Assembly: GCA_964408735.1 (NCBI GenBank)
Contig: CAYPAX010000002.1
Location: forward strand, 10,921-74,920
Length of the DNA stretch: 64,000 nucleotides
From: an uncultured Rhodospirillaceae bacterium
GTDB taxonomy: Bacteria > Pseudomonadota > Alphaproteobacteria > UBA7887
Direction of reading: 5' to 3'
Positions 4,615 to 60,029 of this stretch are shown one piece after another. Numbering within the stretch: position 1 is the first letter of the stretch; the number at the start of each line of letters is the position of its first letter. The notes beneath the pieces were generated by a model. The model worked only from the letters and a program-made list of their open reading frames with translations, searched no databases and was not told the DNA's origin. The translations under genes and the position numbers were made by a program.

Positions 4615-5952
4615 ATGGAAGGCGGCCTGAAGGCGCCCGTGCGCCATCCGATCGACTACGCTGATCCCGCCTTCCACGATCCGCAAGCGATCGACGCGGA
4701 GCTGCGTCGCGTCTTCGACATCTGCCATGGCTGCCGGCGCTGCTTCAACCTCTGCGACAGCTTCCCCAGGCTGTTCGACCTCGTTGACAAGTCGGACACG
4801 GGCGAGCTCGACAGCGTGGACTCGGCGGACTTCAAGCCGGTCATCGATGCCTGCACGCTCTGCGACATGTGCTTCATGGTGACCTGCCCCTACGTGCCGC
4901 CGCACGAGTTCAACCTGGACTTTCCCCATCTCGTCCTGCGAGCCCGCTCGGCCGATCTCGCGGCGGGCAAGCTCGGCTGGGCGGACAAGGCGCTTGCCAA
5001 GACCGACCGCAACGGCAAGCTCGCCCGCCCCGTGGCACCCGTCGCCAACTGGGCCAGCGATCGCCGCAACCGCCTGACCCGACCCGTCATGCAGGCCGTC
5101 GCCGGTATCCATCAGGATGCCTCCTTGCCGCGCTATCAAAGCAAGACCTTCACCATGCGTGCCAAGCAGGCGCCGACCGTTAATACGGATGCGCCGGCCG
5201 CGGGCCGCAGGGTGGCGATCTTCGCGACCTGCTTCGTAAACTACAACAGCCCCGAGATCGGCGAGGCCGCGCGCGCCGTCCTCGCCCATAACGGCGTCGA
5301 GACCGAGGTCGCCTATCCCGGCTGCTGCGGCATGCCGCAGCTCGAGCAGGGCGATTTCGCCGCCGTCGCGGAGAAGGCCAGGAAGACCGCAGCCGTGCTC
5401 TGCGACTGGATCGATAAGGGCCACGACATCGTTGCCCCGGTGCCGAGCTGCGCGCTGATGCTCAAGTTCGAGTGGCCCCTGATTTTGCCTGACGACCCGG
5501 CAATAAAGCGCGTCGCCGCGCACACCGCCGATATCACCGAATATGTCGCCGATATTGCCGAGAAAGAGGGCCTGGCCGATGGCCTCAAGCCTCTCGACGG
5601 CGGCATCGCGGTGCATCTCGCCTGCCACGCCCGGGCGCAGAACATGGGGCCCAAGGCGGTGGAGATGCTCAAGCTCATCCCCGAGGCCGACCTCGAGGTC
5701 ATCGAGCGCTGCTCGGGCCATGGCGGCGCCTGGGGCGTGAAGAAGGACTTCTTCGAGGTGGCGCTCAAGGTGGGCAAGCCGGCGGCGCGCAAGGCGGCCA
5801 AGTCGGCCAAGGCCCATCTGGTGTCCGAATGTCCTTTGGCCGGTGAGCATCTGCGCCAGGGCATCGAGGCGATGGGTGACGGGGCCCTGGCCGAAAACCC
5901 GGCCCGCCACCCCATAGAGCTGTTCGCCCGCGCCTACGGTCTGGTGTCATGA
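4615..5952 (+). CDS. CCG-domain (Fe-S)-binding oxidoreductase, GlpC/HdrD/LutA-like
   Basis: 445 aa. Ferredoxin-type CxxCxxCxxxCP motifs (CHGCRRCFNLCDSFP; CTLCDMCFMVTCP) and two cysteine-rich CCG-like regions (CCGMP..., PSCALM, CSGHGGAWG). Confidence 0.75.
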   Translation: MEGGLKAPVRHPIDYADPAFHDPQAIDAELRRVFDICHGCRRCFNLCDSFPRLFDLVDKSDTGELDSVDSADFKPVIDACTLCDMCFMVTCPYVPPHEFNLDFPHLVLRARSADLAAGKLGWADKALAKTDRNGKLARPVAPVANWASDRRNRLTRPVMQAVAGIHQDASLPRYQSKTFTMRAKQAPTVNTDAPAAGRRVAIFATCFVNYNSPEIGEAARAVLAHNGVETEVAYPGCCGMPQLEQGDFAAVAEKARKTAAVLCDWIDKGHDIVAPVPSCALMLKFEWPLILPDDPAIKRVAAHTADITEYVADIAEKEGLADGLKPLDGGIAVHLACHARAQNMGPKAVEMLKLIPEADLEVIERCSGHGGAWGVKKDFFEVALKVGKPAARKAAKSAKAHLVSECPLAGEHLRQGIEAMGDGALAENPARHPIELFARAYGLVS

Positions 5953-6536
5953 GCAAGCGCACGATCACCCGCGCCGACATTTTGGCAATGGACGTCTATG
6001 CCGCCGAGCGCAAAGAGCGCCGCGCGAAGACCTCGATCCTCAAGGAGCAGCGCCGCCTCGCCGTCGGACCCTTCGCCACCTTTCATTTCGAATGCTATGA
6101 GACCATGTGGATGCAGATCCACGAGATGCTCTATATCGAGAAGGGCGGCGAGGCGCAGATCGCCGACGAGCTGGCGGCCTACAACCCGCTGATCCCCGAC
6201 GGCCGCGAGCTGGTGGCGACCCTGATGTTCGGCATCCCCGAGGCAGAGCGCCGCGCCCGTATTCTGGCTACCCTCGGCGGCGTCGAAGACCGCATCGCCA
6301 TCGAGATAGACGGCGATCCGGTCGCGGCGTTGCCCGAAGGCGATGTCGAGCGCTCGCGAGAGGACGGCAAGACCTCCGCCGTGCACTTCCTGCATTTCCC
6401 CTTCACGGAAGCCCAGATCGCCGCCTTTCGCGATCCGGAGAGCCGCATCACGCTGTCGGTATCCCACCCCAATTACGGCCACATCGCCGTCTTCCCCCCT
6501 GCCTTGCACGAGGCGCTCGCCGCCGACTTCGATTGA
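5949..6536 (+). CDS. DUF3501 family protein
   Basis: 195 aa with a 4-bp overlap onto the upstream Fe-S gene. The DUF3501 call is from memory of the family's length and genomic context (commonly next to rubrerythrin plus a CCG Fe-S protein), not from an alignment. Confidence 0.55.
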   Translation: MSKRTITRADILAMDVYAAERKERRAKTSILKEQRRLAVGPFATFHFECYETMWMQIHEMLYIEKGGEAQIADELAAYNPLIPDGRELVATLMFGIPEAERRARILATLGGVEDRIAIEIDGDPVAALPEGDVERSREDGKTSAVHFLHFPFTEAQIAAFRDPESRITLSVSHPNYGHIAVFPPALHEALAADFD

Positions 6537-6575: not shown

Positions 6576-9500
6576 GTGCGCGCGGTGGCTGAGGACCAGA
6601 GCACGAGACGCTTGGCGGCGATACTGGCGGCGGATGTCGTCGGCTATACCCGCCTCATGCGCGATGACGAGCAGGCCACCATCGCCGCGCTCGAAGCCTG
6701 CCGCGCCATCTTCGCCGACGCCATCGCCACCCATGGCGGGCGTGTGGTGGACATGGCGGGCGATTCCGTGCTCGCTGTCTTCGAGACCGCCGGCGGCGCC
6801 GTCGAGGGCGCCCTTGCCATCCAGCAGCGGCTGGCGGCCCGCGAGGAGCCCGAAGGGCGCCGCATGCGCTACCGCATCGGCGTCAACTCCGGCGATATCG
6901 TCGAGAAGGCCGACGGCACCGTCTATGGCGACGGCGTCAACGTTGCCGCCCGCCTCGAAGGCCTGGCCGAGCCGGGCGCGGTCTGCGTCTCCGGCTCGGT
7001 CTACGATTCGGTCGAAGCCCATTTGGACGCCAGATTCGCCTATCTCGGCAAGCAGACGGTCAAGAACGTCGACAAGCCCGTGCGCGCCTACCGGGTCTTG
7101 GAGCCTGGTGCCGAAGCGCCCAAGGCGCCGCGCAGGCGCTATGCGATTATCGCCGCCGCGGCGGTGGTCCTCATCGCCGCCGGCCTCGGCGTGCGCTGGC
7201 TGACCTACGTGCCGCCATACTCGGACATGGTCACTGTCACCGGCGAATTTACCAACGACCCGGTGCTGGCAGCACCCACGGGCCCGGCCATCGCCGTGCT
7301 GCCGTTCGACGATCTCTCCGAGGACACCGGCCAGGGCTTCTTCGCCGACGGCCTCACCGAGGACATCATCACCGGGCTGTCGCGCTTCAGCAATCTGCGC
7401 GTCATCGCCCGCCACTCGACCTTCCAATACAAGGGCCAGGCAGTCGATGTGCGTGAGGTCGGCGAGGCGCTCGGCGTGCGCTACGTGCTCGAAGGCAGCG
7501 TGCGGCGGGCGGGCGAGTCCCTGCGCGTGACCGCCCAGCTTCTCGATGCCCGCGACGGCACGCACCTGTGGGCGGAGAACTACGCCCGCGATCTGAGCAC
7601 CGCCGACATCTTCGCCATCCAGGACAGCATCATGGAGCGCATCGTCGGCACGCTCGGCAGCAGCGTCGGCGTCATCAGCCGTGCCCTACTGGAGGAGAGC
7701 GCGGCCCGCTACACCGACAATCTTGCCGCCTATGACTGCGTGCTGCGCGCCTATGCCTATTACGACCTGGCGACCGCGGACGAGCACCTGGCGGTGCGCA
7801 CCTGCCTGGAAGAGGCGGTGGCGCAGGACCCCTCCTATGCCGAGGCTTGGGGCTGGCTCGCCGGCATGTATCAGGACGAATACAAGTTCGCCTTCAACCC
7901 ACGCGCGGAAGCGGACGATCCGCTGGCGAGAGCCATCGCGGCGTCGCGGAACGCCATCAACGCCGATGCGACCAGCCAGGTCGGTTACGAGACCCTGGCC
8001 GGCGGGCATTATTTTTCGGGCGATATCGAACAATTCCGCGCCGCCGCCGAGCGCGCTCTGTCGCTCAACCCCAACAACTCCAATACCCTCGCCTGGATGG
8101 GCTTTCTCACGGCCTATTCCGGCGCCTGGAACAGAGGCATCGCCCTGCTCGACAAGGCGGTCAACCTCAATCCCAATCATCCCAGCTGGTATCACGTTGC
8201 CTACGCCCTGCATCACTATCACAAGGGCAATTACGAGGCGGCGCTGTTGGCGGCCAAGCGCTACAACCTGCCGGGTTTCTACTGGCACCACCTGAATCTG
8301 TCGATGATCTACGCGCAGCTCGGCCGGCTCGACGAGGCACGGGCTGCGGTTGCCGAGCTTACCAAGCTCTATCCCGGTTACGCCGACGTCGCCCGTGCCG
8401 ACCTGGAGAAATGGTTCAAGGACGAAGCGCTGGTCACGGCCATGCTGGAGGGCCTGGAGAAGGCCGGGCTGTTCGACGAGCCCGAAGTCACGCGTCCGGC
8501 CATTGCCGTGCTGCCCTTTGCGAACCTTGGCGGCGACCCGGCCCAGGCCTATTTCGCCGACGGCATCACGGAAGAGCTGACCGAGGCGCTGGCGCGCTTC
8601 CAGGGGCTGTCTGTCACGGCGCGCACCCCGACGCTGCAATACAAGGAGACGACAGCGGACGTGCGCGAGATCGGCCAGGCGCTGGGCGTCGGTTATGTGT
8701 TGGAGGGCAGCGTGCGCCGCGACGCCGACACGGTCGGCATAACGGCGCAGCTCATCGACACAGCCGACGGCGCACATCTGTGGAGCGAGACCTACGAGCG
8801 CGACCTCATTGTCGGCGGCATTTTCGCGGTGCAGGAGGATATTGCGGATCGGGTGACGGTGGCGCTTACCGGTCGCCACGGGGTCCTTGTGGAACGAGAC
8901 TTGGCAGAAGCCCGTCAGTTGGCCCCGGAGAGCCTCGAGCACTATGACTGTGTTCTGTTGGCATCGGTCTATTGGGAGCACGCGGAACAGAAAACCTATC
9001 CGGCATTGCTGGATTGTCTCGAGCACGCGGTGGAATCGAATCCAGACTACGTAGACGCATGGATAGCCTTATCGGAGTTCTATGCCAACGACTACGAGCT
9101 TTCGATTGGCGCAAGGCCGGATCCTGCCTCACTAGCACTCGCCGCAGCGGAAAGGGCGGTCGAACTCGCGCCGAGACGTCACGACGCCCATGGGGTGAAA
9201 TCGAACGCGCTTTTCTTTTTGCACCAGCTCGATGCCTTTGAGAAGGCAGGCGATGTCGCGGTTGAGCTTAATCCGAGTGATCCCGAAATCCTGGTCCTGA
9301 CCGGGCTCCATTTGGTCCTGGTGGGCAAATGGGAGAAGGGTATCACCTTGGTGCATCGGGCGATGGAGCTTCAGCCCGATCATCCGACTTGGTGGTATTT
9401 CCCGACGATTTGGGAGCATTACCACAATGGTCGTTACGAGGCCGCGCTTGCTGACGCCCTCAAGATCGATCTCGAGGATTACCTGTGGACCCACACCGCG

Positions 9501-10922
9501 CGCGCGATCGCCTATGCGCGTCTCGGCCGCATGGCCGAAGCGCGGGCGGCGGCGGCGCGCGCAGCCGAGGTCTATCCCGGCTTCTCGATCGAGGCCCAGC
9601 GTGCCGAGCTGCAAAAATATAATTTCGAAGAGTCACTCATCGCCGACACTCTCGGCGCCCTCCGTCTCGCCGGGGTGCCGGAGACGCCGCCGGCGCCGGC
9701 GCGGCCGGTGATTGTCGTGCTGCCGTTCGACAATATGGGCGGCGATGGGAGCCAGGACTTTTTCGCCGACGGCATTACCGAGGATATCACCACGCGGCTG
9801 TCGCGCTTTGCTGACCTTGCCGTGATCGCGCGCAACTCGGCCTTCCAGTACAAGGGCCAGGCCGTGGATGTGGAGGCCGTGGCGGCCGAGCTTGGCGCCG
9901 ACTATGTGGTGGAGGGAAGCGTGCGGCGCTCGCAGGACCGCGTGCGCGTCACCGCCCAGCTCCTCGAAGCCGGCGCCGCCACCCACCTCTGGGCCGAGAC
10001 CTACGACCGCGACCTGACGGCCGGCGACGTCTTCGACATCCAGGACGAGATCACCGACTCCATCGTCGGCGTCATAGCCGGTGTCCACGGTGTGATTTCC
10101 CGCTCCGGTGCAGCCGATGCCCGTCGGCGCCCCGAAAGCCTCGACACCTATGACTGTTTGTTGCTCGCCTATGCTTATGACCGTCAAGTGACCGCCGAGG
10201 CGTTCCACGCCGGAAAACAGTGCCTCGACGCAGTGCTGGCGCGCGAGCCGGATTATGTCGATGCTCTGTCCGCATTTACCTATCTCGCGGCCGACGGCTC
10301 CACCATGGGCTGGGGTGGACTGACGGACGACGAGCGTGAGGCCCTATTGGCCGAGGCCCTTGCGACGGGCCACCGTGCCATCACCTTGGCACCGGATGAC
10401 GCCAAGAGCCAGTGGACTCTCGCTTATGCCAAATTCGTCGCCGGCGACGTGCCCGGCTTCCGGGCTCACGCCGAGCAGGCCATGACGCTCAACCGGAACG
10501 ATGCGGACGTTAAGGGCTATGCCGGATTGTTGCTGGCTTTCGCTGGCGACTACGATCGGGGCCTTGAGCTGCTCGAAGAAGCTTTCGCCCTCAACCCGCA
10601 TCATCCCCAATGGTGGCAATTTGGTGTGGCGACCGCGCATTGGGCCGATGGCCGCTACGAGGAAGCCCTGGCCGCCGTCCGCAAAGTGGATCAACCGGAC
10701 AGTTATTGGACGCACATATGGCGTGTCTTGGCTTTCACCGGCGTCGGCGACATGGACTCTGCTCGTGCGGCGGCCGCCGATCTGGAGCGCGTCTATCCCG
10801 GCTTTACCATCGCTGCCTATCGCGATGAGGTCGCCTATTGGCAGCTGAAGCCGGATCTTGTTGATAAGGCCATCGCCGCCCTACGCAAGGCCGGCCTGCC
10901 AGAGGGCGGCGACAGCGACTAG
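6576..10922 (+). CDS. Class III adenylate/guanylate cyclase with one TM segment and three tandem TolB-N-like plus TPR-like sensor modules (1448 aa)
   Basis: GTG start. The N-terminal CHD cyclase domain reads LAAILAADVVGYTRLM...GDSVLAVF...YGDGVNVAARLE. A hydrophobic segment follows (YAIIAAAAVVLIAAGLGV). Three ~404-aa modules then each begin P[AV]I[AV]VLPF.[DN]...FADG[IL]TE[DE][IL]T..L[SA]RF and end in TPR-like helices. Confidence 0.85.
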   Translation: MRAVAEDQSTRRLAAILAADVVGYTRLMRDDEQATIAALEACRAIFADAIATHGGRVVDMAGDSVLAVFETAGGAVEGALAIQQRLAAREEPEGRRMRYRIGVNSGDIVEKADGTVYGDGVNVAARLEGLAEPGAVCVSGSVYDSVEAHLDARFAYLGKQTVKNVDKPVRAYRVLEPGAEAPKAPRRRYAIIAAAAVVLIAAGLGVRWLTYVPPYSDMVTVTGEFTNDPVLAAPTGPAIAVLPFDDLSEDTGQGFFADGLTEDIITGLSRFSNLRVIARHSTFQYKGQAVDVREVGEALGVRYVLEGSVRRAGESLRVTAQLLDARDGTHLWAENYARDLSTADIFAIQDSIMERIVGTLGSSVGVISRALLEESAARYTDNLAAYDCVLRAYAYYDLATADEHLAVRTCLEEAVAQDPSYAEAWGWLAGMYQDEYKFAFNPRAEADDPLARAIAASRNAINADATSQVGYETLAGGHYFSGDIEQFRAAAERALSLNPNNSNTLAWMGFLTAYSGAWNRGIALLDKAVNLNPNHPSWYHVAYALHHYHKGNYEAALLAAKRYNLPGFYWHHLNLSMIYAQLGRLDEARAAVAELTKLYPGYADVARADLEKWFKDEALVTAMLEGLEKAGLFDEPEVTRPAIAVLPFANLGGDPAQAYFADGITEELTEALARFQGLSVTARTPTLQYKETTADVREIGQALGVGYVLEGSVRRDADTVGITAQLIDTADGAHLWSETYERDLIVGGIFAVQEDIADRVTVALTGRHGVLVERDLAEARQLAPESLEHYDCVLLASVYWEHAEQKTYPALLDCLEHAVESNPDYVDAWIALSEFYANDYELSIGARPDPASLALAAAERAVELAPRRHDAHGVKSNALFFLHQLDAFEKAGDVAVELNPSDPEILVLTGLHLVLVGKWEKGITLVHRAMELQPDHPTWWYFPTIWEHYHNGRYEAALADALKIDLEDYLWTHTARAIAYARLGRMAEARAAAARAAEVYPGFSIEAQRAELQKYNFEESLIADTLGALRLAGVPETPPAPARPVIVVLPFDNMGGDGSQDFFADGITEDITTRLSRFADLAVIARNSAFQYKGQAVDVEAVAAELGADYVVEGSVRRSQDRVRVTAQLLEAGAATHLWAETYDRDLTAGDVFDIQDEITDSIVGVIAGVHGVISRSGAADARRRPESLDTYDCLLLAYAYDRQVTAEAFHAGKQCLDAVLAREPDYVDALSAFTYLAADGSTMGWGGLTDDEREALLAEALATGHRAITLAPDDAKSQWTLAYAKFVAGDVPGFRAHAEQAMTLNRNDADVKGYAGLLLAFAGDYDRGLELLEEAFALNPHHPQWWQFGVATAHWADGRYEEALAAVRKVDQPDSYWTHIWRVLAFTGVGDMDSARAAAADLERVYPGFTIAAYRDEVAYWQLKPDLVDKAIAALRKAGLPEGGDSD
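7284..10919 (+). repeat. Intragenic tandem triplication: three ~1.21-kb modules (7284-8495, 8496-9704, 9705-10919) encoding residues 237-640, 641-1043 and 1044-1448
   Basis: Module boundaries were placed by hand at the recurring PAIAVLPF/PVIVVLPF motif. The modules are of equal length. Similarity is recognisable at DNA level and strong at protein level. Confidence 0.7.
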
Positions 10923-43054: not shown

Positions 43055-43351
43055 ATGTATGCCGTCTTGATCCTGTTCGGCGAGCCGGTGGACCCCGCCG
43101 CCTTCGCGCGTCATGTCGAGGAAACCCATCGGCCCTTGCTCGACGGGCTCCCCGGTGCCGAGGCCGTCGGGCTGAAATGGGTCGCCGGGAGGCTTGCCGG
43201 CGAGCTGGCCCTCCACCTCGTGATCGAAATCGGCTTTGCCACCGAAGCGGCGTTGCAGGATAGCCTGAACTCGCCGGCCGGACAGGCCATGGCGCGGGAC
43301 TACCCCAATTTCGCTTCCGGCGGCGTGACCATACTGGCCTCAGTCGGGTAG
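43055..43351 (+). CDS. EthD-like small protein (98 aa)
   Basis: EthD/Dabb-like size and hydrophobic pattern. This is a weak call. Confidence 0.4.
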   Translation: MYAVLILFGEPVDPAAFARHVEETHRPLLDGLPGAEAVGLKWVAGRLAGELALHLVIEIGFATEAALQDSLNSPAGQAMARDYPNFASGGVTILASVG

Positions 43352-45067
43352 GCCGGCGGCGCTGAACCCTTCGTCAAACCGTGCCGCCATGGCAGTATCG
43401 TGGATATGCATCGGCCGCATGGTGCTGCGGCTCAGCGCCGGCTCGCCGGCCAGCAGCTCCTGCACGCATTTCTGCGCTACCTCCTGCTGCCCGGCATGCC
43501 AAAGGATCGGCACAGAGATGAGGTGGTTTCGCAACAGATCCGGGGCCTGGCGCACCAGCTTGCTGACCACCTGGGCAGCCCGCTCCGGCTCACCGACGAT
43601 GAAATGGGCCAGCGCCAGCTCGCGCTGATGGCGGAAGCGGTGGGGGTCCTCCGGCGCCGCCTGGATGCCGTTTTGCAGCAGCTGCAAGCCCTCGTCCTGC
43701 TCACCCAGATGGAACTTGGCGATGCCTGTCATGGCCGTCGCCTGGGAGAAGCTCGAATTAAGCTCGAGCGAGGTTTCCGCATGCACCAGGGCGGCATCGA
43801 AATCGCCGCGCAAATCCTGATGGATCATGGCCGCGATGAGATGGGCGAAGAAGCTCGACGGATCGACGGACAATGCCGCCTTGATGCCGGAAGACAGCTC
43901 CTCCCTCACATCCGCCGGCATGTCGAGCACGGAGAACTCGAACATGCGATAGCGGCAAAAGATCATCATCGCCATGGCCATGGCATTATCGGGCTTGCGC
44001 GTCAGCGCCGCCTTGAGGGTTTCCGCCGCCTCGTCGTTATGGCTGTACGAACTGACGAAATAGCCAGCCGCCTTCGACAGCAATTGCGGCACCGAGAGCG
44101 CATCGTTGACCGTGTTGCGAAGCTTCTCGAAGGCCTTGGCCTTGATGCGGATGCGCACGGCCGCTGCGACGCTCATGGAGATCTCGTCCTCGAGATCGAA
44201 GACATCGTCGAGGTTGCGGTCGTAGCGGTCGGACCAGACCTGACTGCCGCCCACCCCCTCGGCAAGCGTGAACGACAGCCTGAGCCTGTCGCCGGCCGCG
44301 CGAACGCTGCCTTCGAGGCGGAAATCCGCGCCCTCGGCCACCTCGCCAGCATGCTCGCCAATTACTGCAATCGCCGTCTGCTTGGTCAGGCCGCCGACGA
44401 TGTCCTGTTGCAGGCCCTCGGCCAGGGAGGCGATCTCGTCGCCGCCGCTGATGACCTTGACGGGCGCCACGGCGACGGTGGGCAGCTCCTCGCCATCCTT
44501 CCTGGTCGGCTCACGATTGGTCCGCTTGCCCTCCCCCTCGACACCGAACTGATAGACCGCCACGGGATCTGCGATATTCTTCAGCTCCTGCTCGCCCATG
44601 AAGGCGAACGGTCCGCCGACCTTGGCGCGCACACTGTCGAATACCGTGCCAGAGACGTTGATGCCGCCGGGGCTTGCCATGGCTTGCAGGCGCGCCGCCA
44701 CATTGACCCCGTCGCCGTAGATCGAGCCGTCTTCCTTCTCCAGGATATCGCCGAGATTGAGGCCGACCCGGAACAGCATCTTGCGGTCGTCGGGCAAGGG
44801 CTCGTTGCGCTTGGCAAGCTCCCCTTGCGCCTCGGTGGCCGACGTCACGGCGCTGATGGCGCTTTCGAAAATCGCCAGCACCGAATCGCCCGCCATATCG
44901 ACGATGCGCCCGTTATGGGCCTCGATACACTTGCGGAAGATGCCGCGAAACTCGTCGAGGGTGGCGACCGTGGCGCGGTCGTCCTCGCGCATCAGGCGCG
45001 AATAGCCGACAGCGTCGGCCGCCAATATGGCAGCCAGACGTTCCTTCGGCTCCTTGGTCTCGGTCAT
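43340..45067 (-). CDS. Class III adenylate/guanylate cyclase, soluble, with a degenerate TolB-N-like module and TPR-like C-terminus (575 aa)
   Basis: The CHD cyclase domain reads LAAILAADAVGYSRLM...GDSVLAIF...YGDGVNVAARLQ. No TM segment is present. The internal stretch VAVAPVKVISGGDEI...LEGSVRAAGDRLRLSFTL is a degenerate copy of the module seen in the other two cyclases. Confidence 0.8.
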   Translation of the reverse strand: MTETKEPKERLAAILAADAVGYSRLMREDDRATVATLDEFRGIFRKCIEAHNGRIVDMAGDSVLAIFESAISAVTSATEAQGELAKRNEPLPDDRKMLFRVGLNLGDILEKEDGSIYGDGVNVAARLQAMASPGGINVSGTVFDSVRAKVGGPFAFMGEQELKNIADPVAVYQFGVEGEGKRTNREPTRKDGEELPTVAVAPVKVISGGDEIASLAEGLQQDIVGGLTKQTAIAVIGEHAGEVAEGADFRLEGSVRAAGDRLRLSFTLAEGVGGSQVWSDRYDRNLDDVFDLEDEISMSVAAAVRIRIKAKAFEKLRNTVNDALSVPQLLSKAAGYFVSSYSHNDEAAETLKAALTRKPDNAMAMAMMIFCRYRMFEFSVLDMPADVREELSSGIKAALSVDPSSFFAHLIAAMIHQDLRGDFDAALVHAETSLELNSSFSQATAMTGIAKFHLGEQDEGLQLLQNGIQAAPEDPHRFRHQRELALAHFIVGEPERAAQVVSKLVRQAPDLLRNHLISVPILWHAGQQEVAQKCVQELLAGEPALSRSTMRPMHIHDTAMAARFDEGFSAAGLPD

Positions 45068-45141: not shown

Positions 45142-45786
45142 TCAGGCGCGCTTCCGCAACCCGCTCTGTTGCAAGCGCCAGAGCATCAGATCCAGCCGGT
45201 CTTGGCCGAAGAAAGGCTCGCTGTCGAAGACCAGGGTCGGCACGCCCCAATGGCCGGCAGCGGTGAGCGCATTCTCGTTGGCGACGAGGGCGTCGTCGCA
45301 GGCTTCGGTGGCTGCGGCCTCAAGCGCGTCCGCATCGAGGCCGGCGCGGCGCGCGGCCTCGGCCAGGTGGTCGCCTTCGTGCCAATTGTCCACATCGCCG
45401 CTCCAGATCAGGCGCGAGACCTCGTCGAGATACGGCAGGCCGCGGCCCATCTCCGTCGCCGCCACGCCGAGGCGATTGAGACGGTGGATGTAGGGCTGCT
45501 CGGCCGCGATGGCACGGGTCTGCAGGTCCATCACGACGGGATCGGGCTTGGGCCAGCGGAAGGGAATACCAGCCTGCTCGGCGACGCGGTGCGAATCGCG
45601 CACCACGTAGGACGGCATCAGGGGATCGACGCGCTTGAAGAAGTTCGGATCGCGGATGGCGATGGGGCGCACCACGCGCACGGCCACATCGAGATCCCAG
45701 GTCTTGGTGAGCGCAACGATGCGCCCCGTCGCAAGATAGGAATACGGGCTGCGGAAGGACCAGTAGAGCTCGACGGTCAAGGTCAT
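45142..45786 (-). CDS. 2-hydroxychromene-2-carboxylate isomerase / DsbA-like thioredoxin-fold protein
   Basis: N-terminus reads LYWSFRSPYSYL, typical of the HCCA isomerase family. Confidence 0.7.
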   Translation of the reverse strand: MTLTVELYWSFRSPYSYLATGRIVALTKTWDLDVAVRVVRPIAIRDPNFFKRVDPLMPSYVVRDSHRVAEQAGIPFRWPKPDPVVMDLQTRAIAAEQPYIHRLNRLGVAATEMGRGLPYLDEVSRLIWSGDVDNWHEGDHLAEAARRAGLDADALEAAATEACDDALVANENALTAAGHWGVPTLVFDSEPFFGQDRLDLMLWRLQQSGLRKRA

Positions 45787-52535: not shown

Positions 52536-55500
52536 GTGAGCGAGGACGGCGGACAAGAAGGCACCACCGAGCGCGTCGCGGCGATCCTGGCGGCGGATGC
52601 CGTGGGCTATTCGCGCCTCATGGCCGACGACGAGAAGGCGACGATCGCGGCGCTGGATCGCGCGCGGGCGGTGTTCACAGAACACATAGAGGCCAACCGT
52701 GGCCGGGTGGTGGACACGGCGGGCGACAGTGTGCTGGCGGTGTTCCAGACCACAGGCGGCGCTGTGCGGGCTTCGGTGGCAATCCAGGAAGGCCTGGCGG
52801 CGCTGGGCGAGGGTGTGCCCGAGCCGCGGCAAATGCTGTTCCGCATCGGCATCCACCTCGGCGATATTCATGAGAAGGCGGATGGCACCATCTACGGCGA
52901 TGGCGTCAATGTGGCGGCGCGGCTGGAGGCGCTGAGCCAGCCAGGGGGGATAACGGTTTCCGACTCAGTGCATGGCAGCATCCGCGACCGGCTTGACGTA
53001 AGCTTCGAGTTCCTGGGCGAGCACGAAGGCAAGAACCTCCGAGCGCCTGTGAAGGCGTATCGTGTGTTGCCAGAGGGCGTGGCTCTTGACACGTCAAAGA
53101 GTAAGCTAGGAATTCCGCGTAGTGGTGTCATCGCCGCGGCAGTGGCAGCCATCCTTATCGTGGTGGGAGCGGTTTGGTGGCAGACGCGGGCGCCCGAACT
53201 GCCGCCGATGGTGAGTGCCGCCGGCACGCCCACCGACGACCCCATTCTGGCCGCGCCCTCGGGTCCGGCGATTGCAGTGCTACCTTTTACTGATTTGTCC
53301 GAGGCAGCTGGACAAGCGTTCTTTGCCGACGGCTTGGCCGAGGACATCATTACCGGGCTGTCGCGTTTCAATCATTTGCGTGTCATCGCCCGCAACTCGA
53401 CCTTCCAGTACAAAGGCCAGGCGGTCGATGTGCGTGAGGTCGGCGAGGCGCTGGGTGTGCGCTACGTGCTCGAAGGCAGCGTCCGGCGAGCGGGTGACTC
53501 GTTACGTGTCTCGGCCCAGCTTCTCGATGCCCGCGACGGCACCCACCTGTGGGCGGAAACTTATGCCCGCGATCTCACTACCGCCGACATCTTCGGTGTC
53601 CAGGACAGCATCATGGAGCGTATCGTCGGGACCCTTGGTGATGAGCATGGTGTCATCAGTCGTGCCGGATTGGCAGAGACCGCAGCTCGCCACACCGACA
53701 ATCTCAGCGCCTACGAATGCGTGCTGCGCGCCTACGGCTATTACGACGTGATCACCCCGGCTGAGCATCTTGCGGTGCGCGCCTGCCTGGAGGAAGCGGT
53801 GGCTCTTGACCTGACCTACGCCGAGGCCTGGGGTTGGCTATCCCACATGTATCAGGACGAATACAAGTTCGGTTTCAATCCACGCCCCGACGTGGGCGAT
53901 CCGCTGGCGTCGGCCATCGCGGCTTCGCAGAATGCGATCAAGGCCGATCCGACCAGCCAGATTGGCTACGAATCCCTGGCCACGGGGCACTATTTCGCCG
54001 GCGACCTGGAGCAATTTCGTATCGCTGCCGAACGGGCGCTGTCGCTCAATCCGAACAACTCGCAAACGCTGGCCTATCTCGGCCAAATGATCGCATTTGC
54101 CGGTGATTGGGACAGAGGGATTGCCTTGATGGACAAGGCGGTGAGCCTCAATCCCAATCACCCCACCTGGTATCACGCCGCATACCTCATGCGACACTAT
54201 CGCGACGCCGACTACGCGGCGGCCTTGCTTTCGGCCAAGCGCTACAACTTGCCCATATTCTTCGCGCACCATTTGTTTCATGCGATCATCTACGCACAGC
54301 TGGGCCGGACCGAAGAGGCGCGGGCATCTATCGTCGCGCTTGAAGCGCTGTACCCGGGATATGCCGACGTAGCGCGCAGCAATCTGGAAAAATGGTGGAA
54401 AGACGAGGCGGTGGTCACTGCCATGCTCGACGGCCTGGAAAAAGCCGGCCTCTTCGATGAGCCCGAACCGCCATCCCGGCCCGTCATTGCCGTGCTGCCC
54501 TTCGACAATCTCTCTGGCGATCCCGAGCAGGACTATTTCGCCGACGGCATCACCGAGGACATCATCACGCGGCTGGCGCAGTTTCCGGACATTCTCGTGC
54601 TCGGGCGCAACACGACCTTCCAGTTCAAGGGCGAGGCGGTGGACGTGAAGGAGATCGGCGCCAGGTTGGAAGCCGACTACATCGTCGAAGGCAGCATCCG
54701 CCGCGCCGGCGAGACCGTGCGGGTCAACGCCCAGCTGCTCGATACCGAGAGCGGTGGCCATATCTGGGCCGAGACCTACGACCGCGCCCTTGACCCAGCC
54801 AACCTCTTCGCCATGCAGGACGAGATCACGGAAGCCGTCGCCAGCCGTATCGGCGACCGACATGGGGCGATTGGCCGTGCCGAGTTTCAGCGCTCCTCCC
54901 GACAAGCGCCAAAGAGTCTTTCGTCATACGAGTGCATTCTGAGATTTGTCGAGTTTCAACGGCACTTCAACGAGGAGACCCATGGTGTGGCGCGTGCCTG
55001 CCTGGAGGAAGTCGTCGAGGCAGAGCCCGATTACGGCGAGGCCTGGGCGCTGCTTGGTAATGCGTACCTCAATGAGATCAATTTTGGATTCAATGCCTCG
55101 GCGGAGTCTTCTTTGGCGCGGGCGATAGAGTTTATGGAGCGGGGTATTGCTATCGACCCGGGAAGCGGTCTGGCCCACGTTCACTTGGCCTGGGCGCTTC
55201 TCACCAACGACAACCCGGAGCGTGCCCTGCGCGAAGCCGAGGAAGCCCTGCGGCTCGATCCCAACAACGTCGAAGTCATCGCGACGGCTGGCATAGTTTT
55301 CGTGAACACGGGGGAGTATCAACGCACCGAGGAGATCATGGCCAAGGTCACGCTGCTGAACCCGAACTATCCCGCCTGGATGAACTGGAACATGGCAAAA
55401 GTTCACCTCGCGCGCGGCGACTATGCGGACGTCGTGGCGCGCCTTGAGATGACACAGATGGCGTGGTGGTATTGGACCAAAGCCTTCCTCGCCGCCGCCC

Positions 55501-55718
55501 ATTGCGCCAACGGCGATATCGAGCGTGGGCAGGAGGAGCTCGATGCCGCCCTCCAAGCTAACCCCGACCTCGCCGAGGCGTATTGGCCGGAGGTCTATTA
55601 CTTCAACAAGAGACCCGAGGTGCAGCCAATGATCGATGCCCTCTCCGCTGGCCTTGAGGTCTGTGGCTGGGACGTGCCGCCTGACCCGGGGCGACAGGCC
55701 GCGGCTGCGCCTAAATAA
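52536..55718 (+). CDS. Class III adenylate/guanylate cyclase with one TM segment and two tandem TolB-N-like plus TPR-like modules (1060 aa)
   Basis: GTG start and a CHD domain. A TM segment follows (VIAAAVAAILIVVGAVWW). The modules start at residue 244 (PAIAVLPFTDLSE...) and residue 649 (PVIAVLPFDNLSG...). Confidence 0.85.
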   Translation: MSEDGGQEGTTERVAAILAADAVGYSRLMADDEKATIAALDRARAVFTEHIEANRGRVVDTAGDSVLAVFQTTGGAVRASVAIQEGLAALGEGVPEPRQMLFRIGIHLGDIHEKADGTIYGDGVNVAARLEALSQPGGITVSDSVHGSIRDRLDVSFEFLGEHEGKNLRAPVKAYRVLPEGVALDTSKSKLGIPRSGVIAAAVAAILIVVGAVWWQTRAPELPPMVSAAGTPTDDPILAAPSGPAIAVLPFTDLSEAAGQAFFADGLAEDIITGLSRFNHLRVIARNSTFQYKGQAVDVREVGEALGVRYVLEGSVRRAGDSLRVSAQLLDARDGTHLWAETYARDLTTADIFGVQDSIMERIVGTLGDEHGVISRAGLAETAARHTDNLSAYECVLRAYGYYDVITPAEHLAVRACLEEAVALDLTYAEAWGWLSHMYQDEYKFGFNPRPDVGDPLASAIAASQNAIKADPTSQIGYESLATGHYFAGDLEQFRIAAERALSLNPNNSQTLAYLGQMIAFAGDWDRGIALMDKAVSLNPNHPTWYHAAYLMRHYRDADYAAALLSAKRYNLPIFFAHHLFHAIIYAQLGRTEEARASIVALEALYPGYADVARSNLEKWWKDEAVVTAMLDGLEKAGLFDEPEPPSRPVIAVLPFDNLSGDPEQDYFADGITEDIITRLAQFPDILVLGRNTTFQFKGEAVDVKEIGARLEADYIVEGSIRRAGETVRVNAQLLDTESGGHIWAETYDRALDPANLFAMQDEITEAVASRIGDRHGAIGRAEFQRSSRQAPKSLSSYECILRFVEFQRHFNEETHGVARACLEEVVEAEPDYGEAWALLGNAYLNEINFGFNASAESSLARAIEFMERGIAIDPGSGLAHVHLAWALLTNDNPERALREAEEALRLDPNNVEVIATAGIVFVNTGEYQRTEEIMAKVTLLNPNYPAWMNWNMAKVHLARGDYADVVARLEMTQMAWWYWTKAFLAAAHCANGDIERGQEELDAALQANPDLAEAYWPEVYYFNKRPEVQPMIDALSAGLEVCGWDVPPDPGRQAAAAPK
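53265..54479 (+). repeat. Dispersed direct repeat: module 1 of the 52536 cyclase is ~85-90% identical at nucleotide level to 7284-8495 (module 1 of the 6576 cyclase)
   Basis: Direct comparison by eye of 7381-7680 with 53381-53680. Protein identity is ~80% across roughly 400 aa, whereas the catalytic domains are only ~55-60% identical. Confidence 0.6.
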
Positions 55719-56850
55719 TCCGCTCGCCGAACTTCTCTATCGCATCCTCCGACAGCGTCAGCCCGAGCCCCGGCGCGTCGTTCAGGGTCAGCCAGCCGTC
55801 GGCGATTTGCGGCGGGTTCTCGAACAGCTCGGCCTGGAGCGGGTCGCGCTGGGGGTCGGTGAAGCTTTCGACGATGTAGCCGGCGGGCGTGGCGGCGACG
55901 AGCTGGGCGTGGATGAAGCAGTCGTGGTGCGGGGCCACGTGGACGTGGTTGAGCTCGCAAAGGGCAGCCAGCTTGCGCCCGCCGGTGAAACCGCCGAACA
56001 TGGTGCAGTCGAACTGCAATATGCGGATCGCCTGCTCCTCCAGCAGCGCGCGGCAGCCGTAACCGGTCAACTCGCTCTCGCCGGCCGAGAGGGGGATATG
56101 GGTTCGCTGGCTCAGCATCTTCAGCTCGCGGCGGTCGTCGGCCCAGCGTACGGGCTCTTCCAGCCACAGCGGGTTCAAGTCCTCGAGCGGGGCAATGGCC
56201 TCAAACGCCGTTTCCAGATCCCAGCCGCGGTTGACGTCGATCATCAGGTCGCGCTCGTCGCCGATGACCTCGCGCACCAGCTCCAGCCGCGGCATGTCCT
56301 CTGCCAGCGGCAGGCCGCCGGCCTTGGCCTTGAAGCCGCGATGGCCCTGGGCCACCAGTGCTTCGATCTCGTCGCGCAGCTCGGCCTCGTCCTTGCCGTC
56401 GCGGTAGTAGGCGCAGGTGACGTAAGCGGGCACCTTGTCGCGATAACCGCCGAAGAGCTGGTAGAGCGGCAGTCCGGCCATCTTGCCGACGATATCCCAG
56501 CAGGCGAGGTCGACCGCCGCGGCGACGCGCACCAGGGCCTCGCGGCCCCAGCCCTTTTCGAAGGCGAGGCGTTGCGAGGTCAACCCGAACAGCGTGTCGT
56601 GCAGGCGCTCGGGCGCCAGGGCGCTCATCCCCAGCACTTGCTCGCCGACGCCGCTCCGGAAGGCCTCGACCACGGCAGCCGGCCCGCCATAGCTGGTGGC
56701 CTGGCCGAAGCCCTCGACGCCGTCGTCGGTGCGCAGGCGCACCAGCACCTCGGCCGCCCGCGGCACCACGAAATGGCTCACCCAGTGGGGTCGGCCTGCT
56801 TCCGGCGCGGTCAGCAGATGTACGTCGATGTCGGTGATGGTCGCGGCCAT
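55711..56850 (-). CDS. Mandelate racemase/muconate lactonizing enzyme (enolase superfamily) protein
   Basis: N-terminal capping domain followed by a barrel with metal-ligand Asp/Glu spacing. The ATG at 56850 is preceded by GGGAG. Confidence 0.8.
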   Translation of the reverse strand: MAATITDIDVHLLTAPEAGRPHWVSHFVVPRAAEVLVRLRTDDGVEGFGQATSYGGPAAVVEAFRSGVGEQVLGMSALAPERLHDTLFGLTSQRLAFEKGWGREALVRVAAAVDLACWDIVGKMAGLPLYQLFGGYRDKVPAYVTCAYYRDGKDEAELRDEIEALVAQGHRGFKAKAGGLPLAEDMPRLELVREVIGDERDLMIDVNRGWDLETAFEAIAPLEDLNPLWLEEPVRWADDRRELKMLSQRTHIPLSAGESELTGYGCRALLEEQAIRILQFDCTMFGGFTGGRKLAALCELNHVHVAPHHDCFIHAQLVAATPAGYIVESFTDPQRDPLQAELFENPPQIADGWLTLNDAPGLGLTLSEDAIEKFGERII

Positions 56851-56907
56851 GGCAGGCTCCCGTCGGTGGTGGCTGGACATTGCGAAAAGGTTGCCCGGGT
56901 CATTCTG

Positions 56908-57528
56908 TCAGCGATCGTTAAGCGCCGGAAAGTCCCGGTAGTGCTCGCGGTGGCTGCCGGCGTGGTTGGCCATGCCGGGCTTGGTCAGCAGGCCGCGCGG
57001 CGCGATGTAGCTGTGGATGCTGCGCTTCGGCGCCTCGTGCCAGGCGATGTTGAAGGCGGCGAGCTTGGGGAAGAACTGCAGCCGGCTGTAGGGCAGGTGG
57101 TCGTGTATCCACCAGGCCAGGGCGCGCCAGTCGGCGCCTTCCGCATACAGGTCGGCGAACCAGGGCACGATGATGCAGGCGACCGCCCCCATGCAACCGT
57201 CGCCATCGCGGCGGTCCCAGATATGGCCGGCATGGTTGGCTGCGTTCGATGCACAGTTCAGACGCAATCGGTTGCCCAGCGCATTGACGTCCGCGGAGCG
57301 GTAGGCCGAGCGAATGGCGAGGCGGCCGAAGGTGGCGTTGAGCGGCTCCAATAGCTCGCCGCAGAGCTTGCGCCCGGCGGCGATGGCAAGGTCCGGATCG
57401 TCGGGAACATTGGCCAACCCATGCAACTCGGCGATCTCGCTATGCAGAAAATCGCGCAGATAGAACGACGGCGACAAACGCACCCGCCCCAGATCTTCCA
57501 GCGCCCTCACCGAGCCCGGCTTGCGCAT
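56908..57528 (-). CDS. Hypothetical protein (~207 aa), possibly zinc D,D-peptidase (M15)-like
   Basis: The segment IRSAYRSADVNALGN...NHAGHIWD...HDH loosely resembles M15 SxYRS...H..G...D...H motifs. It lies only 5 bp after the SDR gene stop. The assignment is weak. Confidence 0.3.
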   Translation of the reverse strand: MRKPGSVRALEDLGRVRLSPSFYLRDFLHSEIAELHGLANVPDDPDLAIAAGRKLCGELLEPLNATFGRLAIRSAYRSADVNALGNRLRLNCASNAANHAGHIWDRRDGDGCMGAVACIIVPWFADLYAEGADWRALAWWIHDHLPYSRLQFFPKLAAFNIAWHEAPKRSIHSYIAPRGLLTKPGMANHAGSHREHYRDFPALNDR

Positions 57529-58511: not shown

Positions 58512-60029
58512 TCATTTCCGATAGAGAGTCCTCACGGAAACGATAACCCCATCGCGCTCCTCGACCAAGAGCACAGCCGCATCCTGGAAAAGATCGCCGG
58601 GCGAGCCGATGGTGCCATAGGTGCTGTGGAAGCGATGCTGTTCGGCAATCATGCTGTGGGCCAGCGCGAAACTCGGACCGCCTTCGACAATGGCGGTGTC
58701 GCGCGCCGTCACCTCCAGGCCGAGGGACGCGACCAGGCGCTCGATGCCTTCGGCGACCGCGCCCTCAGGGGCCGCATCTGCCTGGGCTATGGCAAAACCG
58801 GCCTCGCTCGCCAGCGCCTCGCCGCGCGCGGTCATGCGGATGCGGTCAGCACTCCGCCTGGCCGCCTCGAGCGCCTCCTCGTCCACCACATCGAGCGCGT
58901 GCGCCTCGACAGCTTTCGCCGCCTGGACCGGGTGGGCCGCCGGATCCGAGAGCAGAATGAACTGCGCGATGGTCTTCTGATCGACCGAGCCCAAAGGATT
59001 GTTCTGGCTGATGAAGTCCTGACGCGCGAGCAGCATGGCACTGCCCGCCGAGCGACCGCCGAGAAGCTGTTTGAGGAAATCCTGGGTGATCAGGTCAGCG
59101 GCGCCCTGCCCGCTTGCGGGCCCATAGGCGATGTTGGTGCTGCCGCAAAACGCCGCGACGCCGCCCGACGTCATGGCATTGCAGATCGGCATCGTGCCTG
59201 ATCCGGAGGCGTAGAGTTCGGCGCCATAGCAGCACTCCGCGGTGGCGATCGTGCCGGCAGAGAGGTTGCCCTGGATTTGCGCGGACTCGACAGCCTTCGG
59301 ATAGCTGCTGCCCTTCTGGCCATACCAATTCGGATCCGCGTCGCTGCCGTGGCAGTTGACGAACCAGGACCGTGCGGCGAGTTGCTGGCTGGTCCAATTG
59401 GGGCCGTCGGGCGGTGACAGCTGTAGCGTGGTCGCACTGCCGAAGATTTTGCTGACGCTGGTCGTGGTCGAGCCCTGCCAGACCTCGGCGCTGACCGCGA
59501 GATAGGTCGTGTACTCGTTCTGGGGCAGGGCGGTCAGCGACGCGGAGGTGTTGATCGCGGCAACGAGCTGGGCGGTGTCGTTGCTGCCGGTTATGCCCGC
59601 AAGACGCCCGACAACCCGCGTGGGCGCCAGAAAGTCCGTAATCGTCGTGCTGTAAGCGGCGGCACAGGCATAGGGCAGGTCGGAGGGAACGTTGGCGTCC
59701 GGATCGCCCGATACCGGGTTGGTGAGGGTCTGGTGCGGCACCACGTCCGGCCCGCCGAGGATCATCAGATAGTCCGGTGTCAGTGCGGTGTAGACGCCGT
59801 CCACCGCGTCCTTGTTCTGCTGGTCGTCGGCAATGTTGGTGACCACGGGGGCGCCGAGCTTGCCCATTTGCTTGGCGTTGTCCATGAACACGATCTGGGT
59901 CGTGATGCCGCGCCTTTGGTCGGCCCCGATCAGGGTATTGAGCGCCGCCGAGATCTTCGAGACGTTGGTCCCGTACAGCTTCGTGAGCCCTTTTTGGTTG
60001 GTGACGATAACCTTGCTTGTCGTAGCCAT
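58512..60029 (-). CDS. 505-aa protein with a caspase/gingipain-like (clan CD) His-Gly...Cys signature; function unknown
   Basis: SWFVNCHGSD and GTIATAECCYGA each follow a hydrophobic strand, with 39 residues between the His and the Cys. No signal peptide. It starts 9 nt after the lectin stop. Confidence 0.55.
   Translation of the reverse strand: MATTSKVIVTNQKGLTKLYGTNVSKISAALNTLIGADQRRGITTQIVFMDNAKQMGKLGAPVVTNIADDQQNKDAVDGVYTALTPDYLMILGGPDVVPHQTLTNPVSGDPDANVPSDLPYACAAAYSTTITDFLAPTRVVGRLAGITGSNDTAQLVAAINTSASLTALPQNEYTTYLAVSAEVWQGSTTTSVSKIFGSATTLQLSPPDGPNWTSQQLAARSWFVNCHGSDADPNWYGQKGSSYPKAVESAQIQGNLSAGTIATAECCYGAELYASGSGTMPICNAMTSGGVAAFCGSTNIAYGPASGQGAADLITQDFLKQLLGGRSAGSAMLLARQDFISQNNPLGSVDQKTIAQFILLSDPAAHPVQAAKAVEAHALDVVDEEALEAARRSADRIRMTARGEALASEAGFAIAQADAAPEGAVAEGIERLVASLGLEVTARDTAIVEGGPSFALAHSMIAEQHRFHSTYGTIGSPGDLFQDAAVLLVEERDGVIVSVRTLYRK

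Follow-up and report, generated by a model that had tools for sequence, protein, structure and literature searches.

How a single bacterial protein comes to carry three large, similar modules behind a nucleotide cyclase, and what such an array is for, is the question raised by a 1448-aa open reading frame in the 64,000-nt stretch of DNA that we analysed (the window). A preliminary description had read this locus as an adenylate cyclase followed by an exact tandem triplication of a TolB-N-like plus TPR-like module. The features of the gene and of its two paralogues in the window are as follows.

6576..10922, plus strand: whole gene, encoding a 1448-aa receptor-type class III nucleotide cyclase (open reading frame list)
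6618..7067, plus strand: class III cyclase catalytic domain, aa 15-164, predicted cytoplasmic (Pfam PF00211)
7134..7211, plus strand: sole transmembrane (TM) helix, aa 187-212 (Kyte-Doolittle 19-residue maximum 2.22)
7284..8495, plus strand: module M1, type A, membrane-proximal, aa 237-640, 404 aa
7737..7805, plus strand: M1 cysteine pair Cys388...Cys410, on helices 1 and 2 of the helical half (Cys inventory, codons)
8496..9704, plus strand: module M2, type B, aa 641-1043, 403 aa
8949-9017, plus strand: M2 cysteine pair Cys792/Cys814 (Cys inventory, codons)
9705..10919, plus strand: module M3, type C, aa 1044-1448, 405 aa
10155-10223, plus strand: M3 cysteine pair Cys1194/Cys1216 (Cys inventory, codons)
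52536..55718, plus strand: 1060-aa paralogue with cyclase, TM helix and two modules (types A and E)
43340..45067, minus strand: 575-aa paralogue with cyclase and one divergent module, 25% identical

The open reading frame list, the Pfam match and the hydrophobic segment bore out the order first described: an N-terminal class III cyclase domain, a single TM helix and then M1-M2-M3. The true start of the gene may lie at 6585 or 6612 as alternatives to 6576; P0001, which is 100% identical to the 1448-aa protein, carries a JGI start call at aa 13, and the L001 orthologue starts at the position matching aa 4. A scan for promoters and terminators upstream of the cyclase gene found none, and the genes around each of the three paralogues, which have metabolic or housekeeping roles, gave no functional lead. 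Both paralogues had been correctly recognized in the preliminary description, the one at 52536 with two modules and the one at 43340 with one degenerate module. The latter is predicted to be cytoplasmic because it has neither a TM helix nor a Cys pair.

The PxIxVLPF motif begins at aa 237, 641 and 1044, reproducing the module lengths given earlier, and the junctions between modules have essentially no linker. The longer motif proposed at the outset contains only elements that are present, but taken literally it has no match, its spacing being off by one residue. Each module is made of a TolB-N-like alpha/beta domain followed by 12 TPR-like helices (in M1, aa 237-361, a linker and aa 383-629). 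In agreement with the first reading of these two parts, Pfam returned TolB_N, FlgO and many TPR matches downstream of the cyclase domain, the modules show the tandem helix-turn-helix repeats of the TPR profiles, and the AF2 module model is all-helical past residue 125. Self-BLASTN yielded in-register matches at offsets of 1212, 1209 and 2421 nt, and the three modules aligned pairwise from end to end with 40%, 44% and 40% identity (BLASTP E 3.5e-99 to 6.7e-106). The periodicity anticipated for a self-comparison is thus real. That the motif recurs by coincidence, or as a low-complexity artefact of GC-rich DNA, has nothing in its favour except the high GC content (63-68%) and is refuted by full-length alignments at E 1e-99 to 1e-106 and by a module HMM that matches, over its full length, hundreds of modules in other proteins. 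A di-module model (pLDDT 84, pTM 0.46, junction pLDDT <50) suggests that the modules would behave as separate beads, because of its low pTM and junction confidence.

The repeats had been called exact, which holds for their length and register but not for their sequence: protein identity is 40-44%, DNA similarity between modules (68-74%) does not extend past the first ~350 nt of each, and the longest exact DNA words common to M1-M3 are 12-16 nt. These values bear on the proposal that one module was recently triplicated in situ by unequal crossing-over in the cyclase gene. The exact register, the near-equal module lengths and the near absence of linkers speak for it, as does the occurrence of whole-module duplication in the lineage: L001, a syntenic orthologue, has four modules, its middle B module being duplicated into Q2 and Q3, which have a 30-nt exact DNA word in common. 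However, the DNA homology between M1-M3 is too short for present-day unequal crossing-over, and M1 is closer to module 1 of the 1060-aa paralogue (77% identical) and to Q1 of L001 (92%) than to M2 and M3. M1, M2 and M3 belong to separate old clades of modules, named A, B and C, which all have neighbour-joining bootstraps of 99-100%, against 0% for monophyly of M1+M2+M3; the clades cut across proteins, so that the nearest relatives of each module sit in other proteins. The A-B-C order is also kept in the three modules of P0002, another syntenic orthologue. On all these counts the recent triplication is already contradicted, and we hold it to be highly improbable.

As judged from these sequence comparisons, M1-M3 are old, distinct module types rather than copies that arose in this gene. 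Across proteins we found the type patterns A-B-C, A-C, A-D, A-E, B-C-D and A-B-B-C, a picture that looks as if paralogous genes had gained, lost and swapped cassettes; close relatives differ in having two, three or four modules because whole modules have been gained, lost, duplicated and exchanged. Change of module number in whole units, in line with the expansion first suggested, is seen in the four modules of L001 and the two and one of the paralogues, but unequal crossing-over is plausible only for the B-to-BB step in L001. Within the orthologue trio, identity was 91% for the cyclase, 86-92% for A, 68-78% for C and 64-71% for B, making M2 (type B) the fastest-evolving module and the one that is doubled in the four-module orthologue. 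In a chimera test, M2 was nearest L001-Q2 in its N-terminal third and nearest L001-Q3 in its C-terminal third. This pattern would arise if a deletion by unequal crossover had joined two B modules into one, and the distances fit equally well a history in which the module was duplicated in the L001 lineage and the copies then diverged in complementary ways. Parsimony favours the duplication in L001, because P0002_2 and P0003_1 share the M2 pattern.

On which side of the membrane does the array lie? No second segment of the 1448-aa protein exceeds 1.6 in the 19-residue Kyte-Doolittle profile, and the KAPRRR sequence preceding the TM helix places the N-terminus inside the cell. With the single TM helix, this positive-inside flank and a Cys pair in each module, the three-module array is predicted to be periplasmic, as the preliminary description had assumed. 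The pair probably forms a disulfide. Close TM-linked relatives have it in 80/80 modules, and TM-less arrays lack it at the same positions; in a broader set, it occurs in 29/72 TM-linked and 1/85 TM-less modules. The pair is therefore clade-specific and almost never found in TM-less arrays; the 29/72 of the broader sample ruled it out as a hallmark of every TM-linked array, and because many distant TM-linked modules have no pair, it could in part be a clade marker. The assumption of a periplasmic sensor does not extend to the module as such. Most multi-module relatives have no TM helix and are hence cytoplasmic, so that the module they carry is not confined to sensing at the envelope.

The N-terminal domain matches Guanylate_cyc PF00211 with 44.8 bits against a cutoff of 21.9, and its nearest solved structure, with an alignment, is 3mr7 (E 1e-39). 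It shares the catalytic fold and the metal-binding and transition-state residues with receptor-type class III cyclases (3mr7; Rv1900c 1ybt): Asp20 and Asp63 for metal, Asn122 and Arg126 for the transition state, all invariant in 37 relatives. Unlike in those cyclases, the catalytic domain here is N-terminal to the TM helix, the stretch that separates the membrane from the cyclase contains neither a HAMP nor another signalling helix, and the extracytoplasmic part is a three-module array. The purine-specifying pair also differs: it is Asp59/Thr115 (codons checked) and not the Lys/Asp or Lys/Thr of adenylate cyclases, so that the earlier name stands as class III cyclase but may not stand as adenylate cyclase. 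Asp occupies the Lys position in 36/37 TM-linked relatives, and the Asp/Thr replacement overall is kept in 33-36/37. The product may therefore be other than cAMP.

That the domain makes another cyclic nucleotide, or has only a dimerisation or regulatory role, is a possibility that we regard as doubtful. It draws on the conserved loss of the adenine-specifying Lys/Asp in TM-linked relatives, set against its retention in the TM-less five-module cyclase P0062 and in 3mr7. The invariance of both metal Asp residues and of the transition-state Asn and Arg argues, at the sequence level, for catalysis and against a pseudo-enzyme, and the mycobacterial enzymes Rv1900c and Rv0386 are active cyclases that have no canonical pair. 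Such a non-canonical enzyme would change the output only and would fit the same architecture. The Asp/Thr specificity pair raises the question of which nucleotide this cyclase clade makes.

Among solved structures, both halves of the module are matched in co-linear order only by the periplasmic sensor of E. coli CadC, a ToxR-like one-component receptor; Foldseek aligned 3ly7, 3ly8, 3ly9 and 3lya over 309-314 of their 318-323 residues (E 4e-6 to 1e-5). The two proteins share a cytoplasmic N-terminal effector, a flexible linker, one TM helix and a periplasmic sensor in which, as the AF2 model suggests for the module, an N-terminal alpha/beta subdomain is followed by a helical, TPR-like one. The sequence likeness is weak (hhalign probability 37.8%, E 3.4e-4, 164 columns), the NCBIfam CadC model, which has a cutoff of 400, gave a single module 19.7 bits and the entire protein 37 bits, and with an identity of only 14-20% homology is not proven. 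The effector of CadC is a winged-helix DNA-binding domain, whereas here it is a class III cyclase, and CadC has one sensor where this protein has three in tandem, each with a longer helical half of 12 helices. In CadC, regulation works through the periplasmic domain and a disulfide, the periplasmic Cys pair being functional (PMC3096576). That disulfide, C208-C272, lies in the N-terminal subdomain, whereas the module cysteines, at module positions 152 and 174, lie in the helical half and, in the hhalign alignment, face non-Cys residues of CadC.

The alpha/beta domain of the module has the features of the N-terminal domain of TolB (PF04052), and we compared it with that domain and its relatives LpoB, FlgO and GNA1162. 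The TolB beta-propeller was not found, the TolB equivalog model TIGR02800 reaching 60 bits, below its cutoff of 343, over profile positions 20-156 only. In contrast to these relatives, the domain here has no beta-propeller and no lipoprotein signal and is fused to TPR-like helices and repeated; a component of the Tol-Pal system was rejected on these grounds.

Taken together, the best explanation, to which we assign a probability of about 60%, is a single-pass receptor cyclase of ToxR/CadC-like topology in which an array of old module types would control dimerisation. The cytoplasmic N-terminal catalytic domain would be joined through a ~13-aa Pro-rich tether to the TM helix, and the ~1240-aa periplasmic region would comprise three independently folding sensor modules, each with the two-subdomain layout of the CadC sensor. 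Class III cyclases are obligate dimers, active only as such, and a dimeric active site is expected here. Most likely, the periplasmic arrays would associate in response to a ligand or partner and so set how close the two catalytic domains come, and hence cNMP output; association is the favoured means of control because conformations cannot be rigidly coupled through so short and flexible a tether. The A module, conserved and next to the membrane, may serve as a common transducer, and the faster-evolving, exchangeable distal modules may receive different inputs. Alternatively, the array could be no ligand sensor but a scaffold for protein-protein interactions that spans the periplasm and anchors the cyclase to envelope machinery, module number setting its reach. 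We consider this unlikely: up to ~6 full copies occur in TM-less, cytoplasmic kinases and cyclases, where a periplasmic ruler makes no sense, and the old, individually conserved module types suggest type-specific functions over spacer length.

How widely the module is used beyond this receptor cyclase is indicated by arrays in which 2 to ~6 full modules follow a cyclase, Ser/Thr kinase or SARP output domain. The family is very large: a profile search returned 68,647 representative clusters at E <= 1e-30, a number inflated by the TPR half. A search for homologues of the isolated cyclase domain, for the distribution of module counts, gave short fragments only. We found no experimental characterisation of the module family in the literature, and no paper on CadC-like cyclases, S. 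meliloti cyclases, TolB-like kinases or COG5616 that described the cyclase/TolB/TPR array architecture. Acidobacterial Ser/Thr kinases and SARP/BTAD regulators (such as P0004, P0024 and P0070) carry the same ~400-aa module, with full-length HMM matches, in 3 to 5 full copies and at times one partial extra. They differ from the 1448-aa cyclase in their output domains and in the ~25-aa linkers that join their modules, and most of the kinases have no TM helix, so that their arrays are cytoplasmic and have no Cys pair. Modules of one protein cluster together in these arrays, pointing to duplication or homogenisation within the protein. P0070, a SARP regulator with a TM helix, three modules and a SARP DNA-binding output, links the module family to CadC-type regulators.

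The data show a discrete evolutionary cassette, CadC-related in fold, that is stacked variably and exchanged between signalling proteins, a picture that offers a framework for how one-component receptors diversify their inputs. Only tentatively do we extend this to a self-contained, CadC-related TolB-N-plus-TPR sensor unit of ~400 aa that would recur in cyclases, Ser/Thr kinases and SARP regulators through combinatorial shuffling, would be stacked 1 to 6 or more times and would work on either side of the membrane, with a disulfide staple gained in an exported clade. If so, arrays of differing cassette types would let one one-component receptor integrate several inputs, and signalling would be rewired between close relatives by gain, loss and exchange of modules. 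The 1060-aa paralogue with two modules, the 1448-aa gene and P0002 with three, and L001 with four form a natural series.

The open reading frame at 6576–10922 (+) encodes a 1448-aa protein in which Pfam searches detected a class III cyclase domain (aa 15–164) and, C-terminal to it, matches to TolB_N and FlgO as well as numerous TPR matches. A Kyte–Doolittle scan revealed a sole hydrophobic segment at aa 187–212 (19-residue maximum 2.22), directly preceded by KAPRRR, in agreement with the single transmembrane (TM) helix described earlier between the cyclase and the sensor array. The PxIxVLPF motif starts at aa 237, 641 and 1044, which defines three modules:

7284–8495, + strand, module M1, 404 aa from aa 237
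8496–9704, + strand, module M2, 403 aa from aa 641
9705–10919, + strand, module M3, 405 aa from aa 1044

The preliminary description called these tandem modules exact, which holds for their length and register but not for their sequence: full-length protein alignments gave 40% identity for M1–M2 (E 3.5e-99), 44% for M1–M3 (E 6.7e-106) and 40% for M2–M3 (E 3.1e-101), with the N-terminal 130 columns 50–61% identical and the rest 34–36%. Comparison of the gene with itself at the DNA level yielded in-register matches at offsets of 1212, 1209 and 2421 nt, restricted to ~350 nt at the start of each module (68–74% identity), and the longest exact words that modules had in common with one another were 12–16 nt. 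The three-module periodicity is real and far above chance. Every element of the motif previously used to define the modules is present, but the pattern as spelt out is off by one residue in its spacing and has no match. The two paralogues have the architectures previously assigned to them:

52536–55718, + strand, 1060-aa paralogue, cyclase, TM helix and two modules
43340–45067, − strand, 575-aa paralogue, cyclase and one module, 25% identical

The 64-kb window holds three cyclases of one family, paralogues with three, one and two modules, their cyclase domains sharing 48–56% mutual identity.

It had been proposed that the array arose by triplication through unequal crossing-over. A neighbour-joining tree of 53 modules (200 bootstraps) placed M1, M2 and M3 in three separate clades, and their grouping together received 0% bootstrap support. 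Clade A (100%) grouped M1 with the opening modules of several cyclases, the 1060-aa paralogue among them; clade B (100%) contained M2, module 2 of P0002 (a syntenic three-module orthologue), Q2 and Q3 of the four-module orthologue at locus L001, and module 1 of the homologue P0003; and clade C (99–100%) contained M3, L001 Q4, P0002 module 3, P0003 module 2 and module 2 of the homologue P0005. Judged from the module sequences, the triplication reading is wrong for this gene. Because the clades cut across proteins, the proteins are module mosaics, as their module orders illustrate:

1448-aa protein and P0002, A-B-C
P0005, A-C
P0010, A-D
1060-aa paralogue, A-E
P0003, B-C-D
L001, A-B-B-C

Relatives were gathered by whole-protein search and then with a module HMM, which matched the ~400-aa unit at full length in tandem arrays:

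2 modules, many cyclases of ~1045 aa
3 modules, cyclases P0001, P0002, P0003 and P0006, SARP regulator P0070, kinases P0096 and P0105
4–5 modules, at times plus a partial one, Acidobacterial Ser/Thr kinases of 2000–2500 aa
5 modules, cyclases P0046 and P0062
6 modules, P0041

When 1.8 billion representatives were searched with a profile, single proteins showed up to 7–8 matched stretches. The more general proposal, that module number evolves through whole-module events, is well supported by these two- to six-module relatives and by the L001 orthologue with four.

P0002 is 77% identical to the 1448-aa protein and lies in the same gene order as in the window (Fur, rubrerythrin, CCG, DUF3501, cyclase, SH3, 2-hydroxyacid dehydrogenase). 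L001, from an uncultured Rhodospirillaceae MAG with flanks 91% and 85% DNA-identical to the window, encodes 1849 aa with four modules. Synteny supports the orthologue and module assignments for both. L001 Q1 is 92% identical to M1 and Q4 is 78% identical to M3, while M2 is matched by both Q2 (64%) and Q3 (67%), which retain a 30-nt exact word in common. The N-terminal third of M2 resembles Q2 and its C-terminal third resembles Q3, a split compatible both with fusion by unequal crossover in the three-module lineages and with duplication in L001 and complementary divergence of the two copies, the latter being favoured by parsimony. The three orthologues show a strong rate gradient along the protein, with identities of 91% for the cyclase plus TM, 86–92% for A, 68–78% for C and 64–71% for B: the distal and middle modules change far more quickly than do the catalytic domain and the module next to the membrane. 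In P0003, modules B and C are 67–75% identical to those of the trio, as near as the trio members are to each other, whereas its cyclase domain is only 55% identical, which points to cassette exchange and suggests that a B-C cassette, corresponding to 8496–10919 in the window, moved between paralogous cyclase genes.

Because a cyclase domain requires nucleotide triphosphates, it must be cytoplasmic, and the single TM helix with its positive N-side flank predicts that residues 213–1448 are periplasmic. The periplasmic placement proposed earlier therefore stands as a topology prediction for this protein, but it is not an intrinsic property of the module: most Acidobacterial kinases, the five-module cyclases P0046 and P0062 and the 575-aa paralogue lack a TM helix, so their arrays must be cytoplasmic. 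In the kinases P0007 (aa 2024–2050), P0053 (aa 1574–1600) and P0029 (aa 1999–2020), 3–4 TM-less (cytoplasmic) modules are followed by a strongly hydrophobic segment and a last partial module, a layout that may place modules on both membrane sides within one protein; most long Acidobacterial kinases have no such segment.

Each module of the 1448-aa protein has exactly two Cys, 22 residues apart (388/410, 792/814 and 1194/1216), located on the first two helices of its helical half. In a first survey of 123 proteins, both Cys were kept in 80/80 full-length modules of the 37 proteins with a TM before the array, and the 297 modules found in the 86 proteins without a TM had Ala, Gly, Ile or the like there. 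A broader, more divergent sample overturned the pair as a mark of all TM-linked arrays: it was found in 29/72 TM-linked versus 1/85 TM-less modules, and 24 of the 43 TM-linked modules without it contained no Cys whatever. Across these samples the pair is clade-specific, yet nearly confined to exported arrays, which fits a putative periplasmic disulfide.

An AlphaFold2 model of M1 built from a 30-sequence module alignment was confident (mean pLDDT 88.2), with an alpha/beta domain (residues 1–125) and 12 helices (residues 147–393) joined by a linker of lower confidence. In a Foldseek search with this model, the periplasmic domain of E. coli CadC (3ly9, 3ly8, 3ly7 and 3lya) occupied ranks 8–21 (E 4e-6 to 1e-5; 309–314 columns of a 318–323-residue target) and was the sole solved structure co-linear with both module halves; low TM-scores (0.34–0.45) indicate that the relative subdomain orientation differs. 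Support from sequence was consistent, though weak: the NCBIfam CadC model aligned module residues 14–261 with profile positions 219–452 (E 3e-4) and gave E 1.8e-9 on the whole protein, far under the family cutoff, and aligning the module profile with CadC residues 188–512 in hhalign gave E 3.4e-4 at 38% probability over 164 columns. The modules thus resemble the CadC sensor in fold and topology, but their Cys pair is placed elsewhere and the output domain is different, so that, with these weak sequence signals, CadC-family membership is unproven. An M1+M2 model retained both folds (pLDDT 84.2), and its pTM of 0.46 and junction pLDDT below 50 predict no fixed inter-module geometry. Relatives already carry the automatic annotation "TolB-like protein/class 3 adenylate cyclase/PilF", and the domain content is therefore no novelty; in our literature search, no paper described the ~400-aa unit as a CadC-related cassette that repeats, can be exchanged and serves on both membrane sides.

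By profile match and catalytic residues, the 1448-aa protein is a class III cyclase, with D20, D63, N122 and R126 invariant in 37 relatives. The purine-specifying pair departs from the canonical Lys/Asp:

6750–6752, + strand, Asp59, canonical Lys
6918–6920, + strand, Thr115, canonical Asp

The Lys position is Asp in 36/37 relatives and the Asp position is Thr in 33/37, counting the paralogues in the window, of which the 575-aa protein has Ser at the Thr position. Lys/Asp is retained in the TM-less P0062 and in 3mr7, the closest solved structure. The 1448-aa cyclase failed a residue test for adenine specificity, and this replacement makes the enzyme product uncertain.

Class III cyclases work as dimers, and here a Pro-rich tether of ~13 residues joins the catalytic domain to the TM helix. 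Since such a flexible tether could not pass on a rigid conformational change, control would most likely be exerted, as in CadC/ToxR-type receptors, by the periplasmic arrays associating with one another. The array comprises three separate sensor folds; the main rival explanation is that it serves as a scaffold. Under control by association, the proximal element in common would be the conserved A module, with distinct inputs coming from modules B and C, which evolve faster. Examination of the neighbouring genes gave no clue to these inputs.

Orthologues (locus L003 and the P0002 contig) keep the arrangement that leads up to the cyclase in the window (4615–6536, +): Fur, rubrerythrin, CCG-domain protein, DUF3501, then the cyclase. 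The CCG and DUF3501 genes overlap by 4 nt, and the gap from DUF3501 to the cyclase start is just 39–75 nt, in which a scan detected no terminator-like or promoter-like site; the cyclase may be co-transcribed with these redox- or iron-related genes. The 575-aa paralogue has neither a TM helix nor the Cys pair, and its single divergent module should therefore be cytoplasmic. Immediately upstream of it on the same strand lies a DSBA-like thioredoxin-fold gene (45142–45786, −), and at locus L006 a DSBA-like gene adjoins a cyclase pair that includes P0005. The end of the 1060-aa cyclase gene is overlapped by a 572-aa open reading frame (55636–57354, +) that lacks any Pfam match and is perhaps not a genuine gene. 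A 505-aa open reading frame (58512–60029, −) has a weak Peptidase_C25 (gingipain-like) match at aa 285–365 (E 3e-8).
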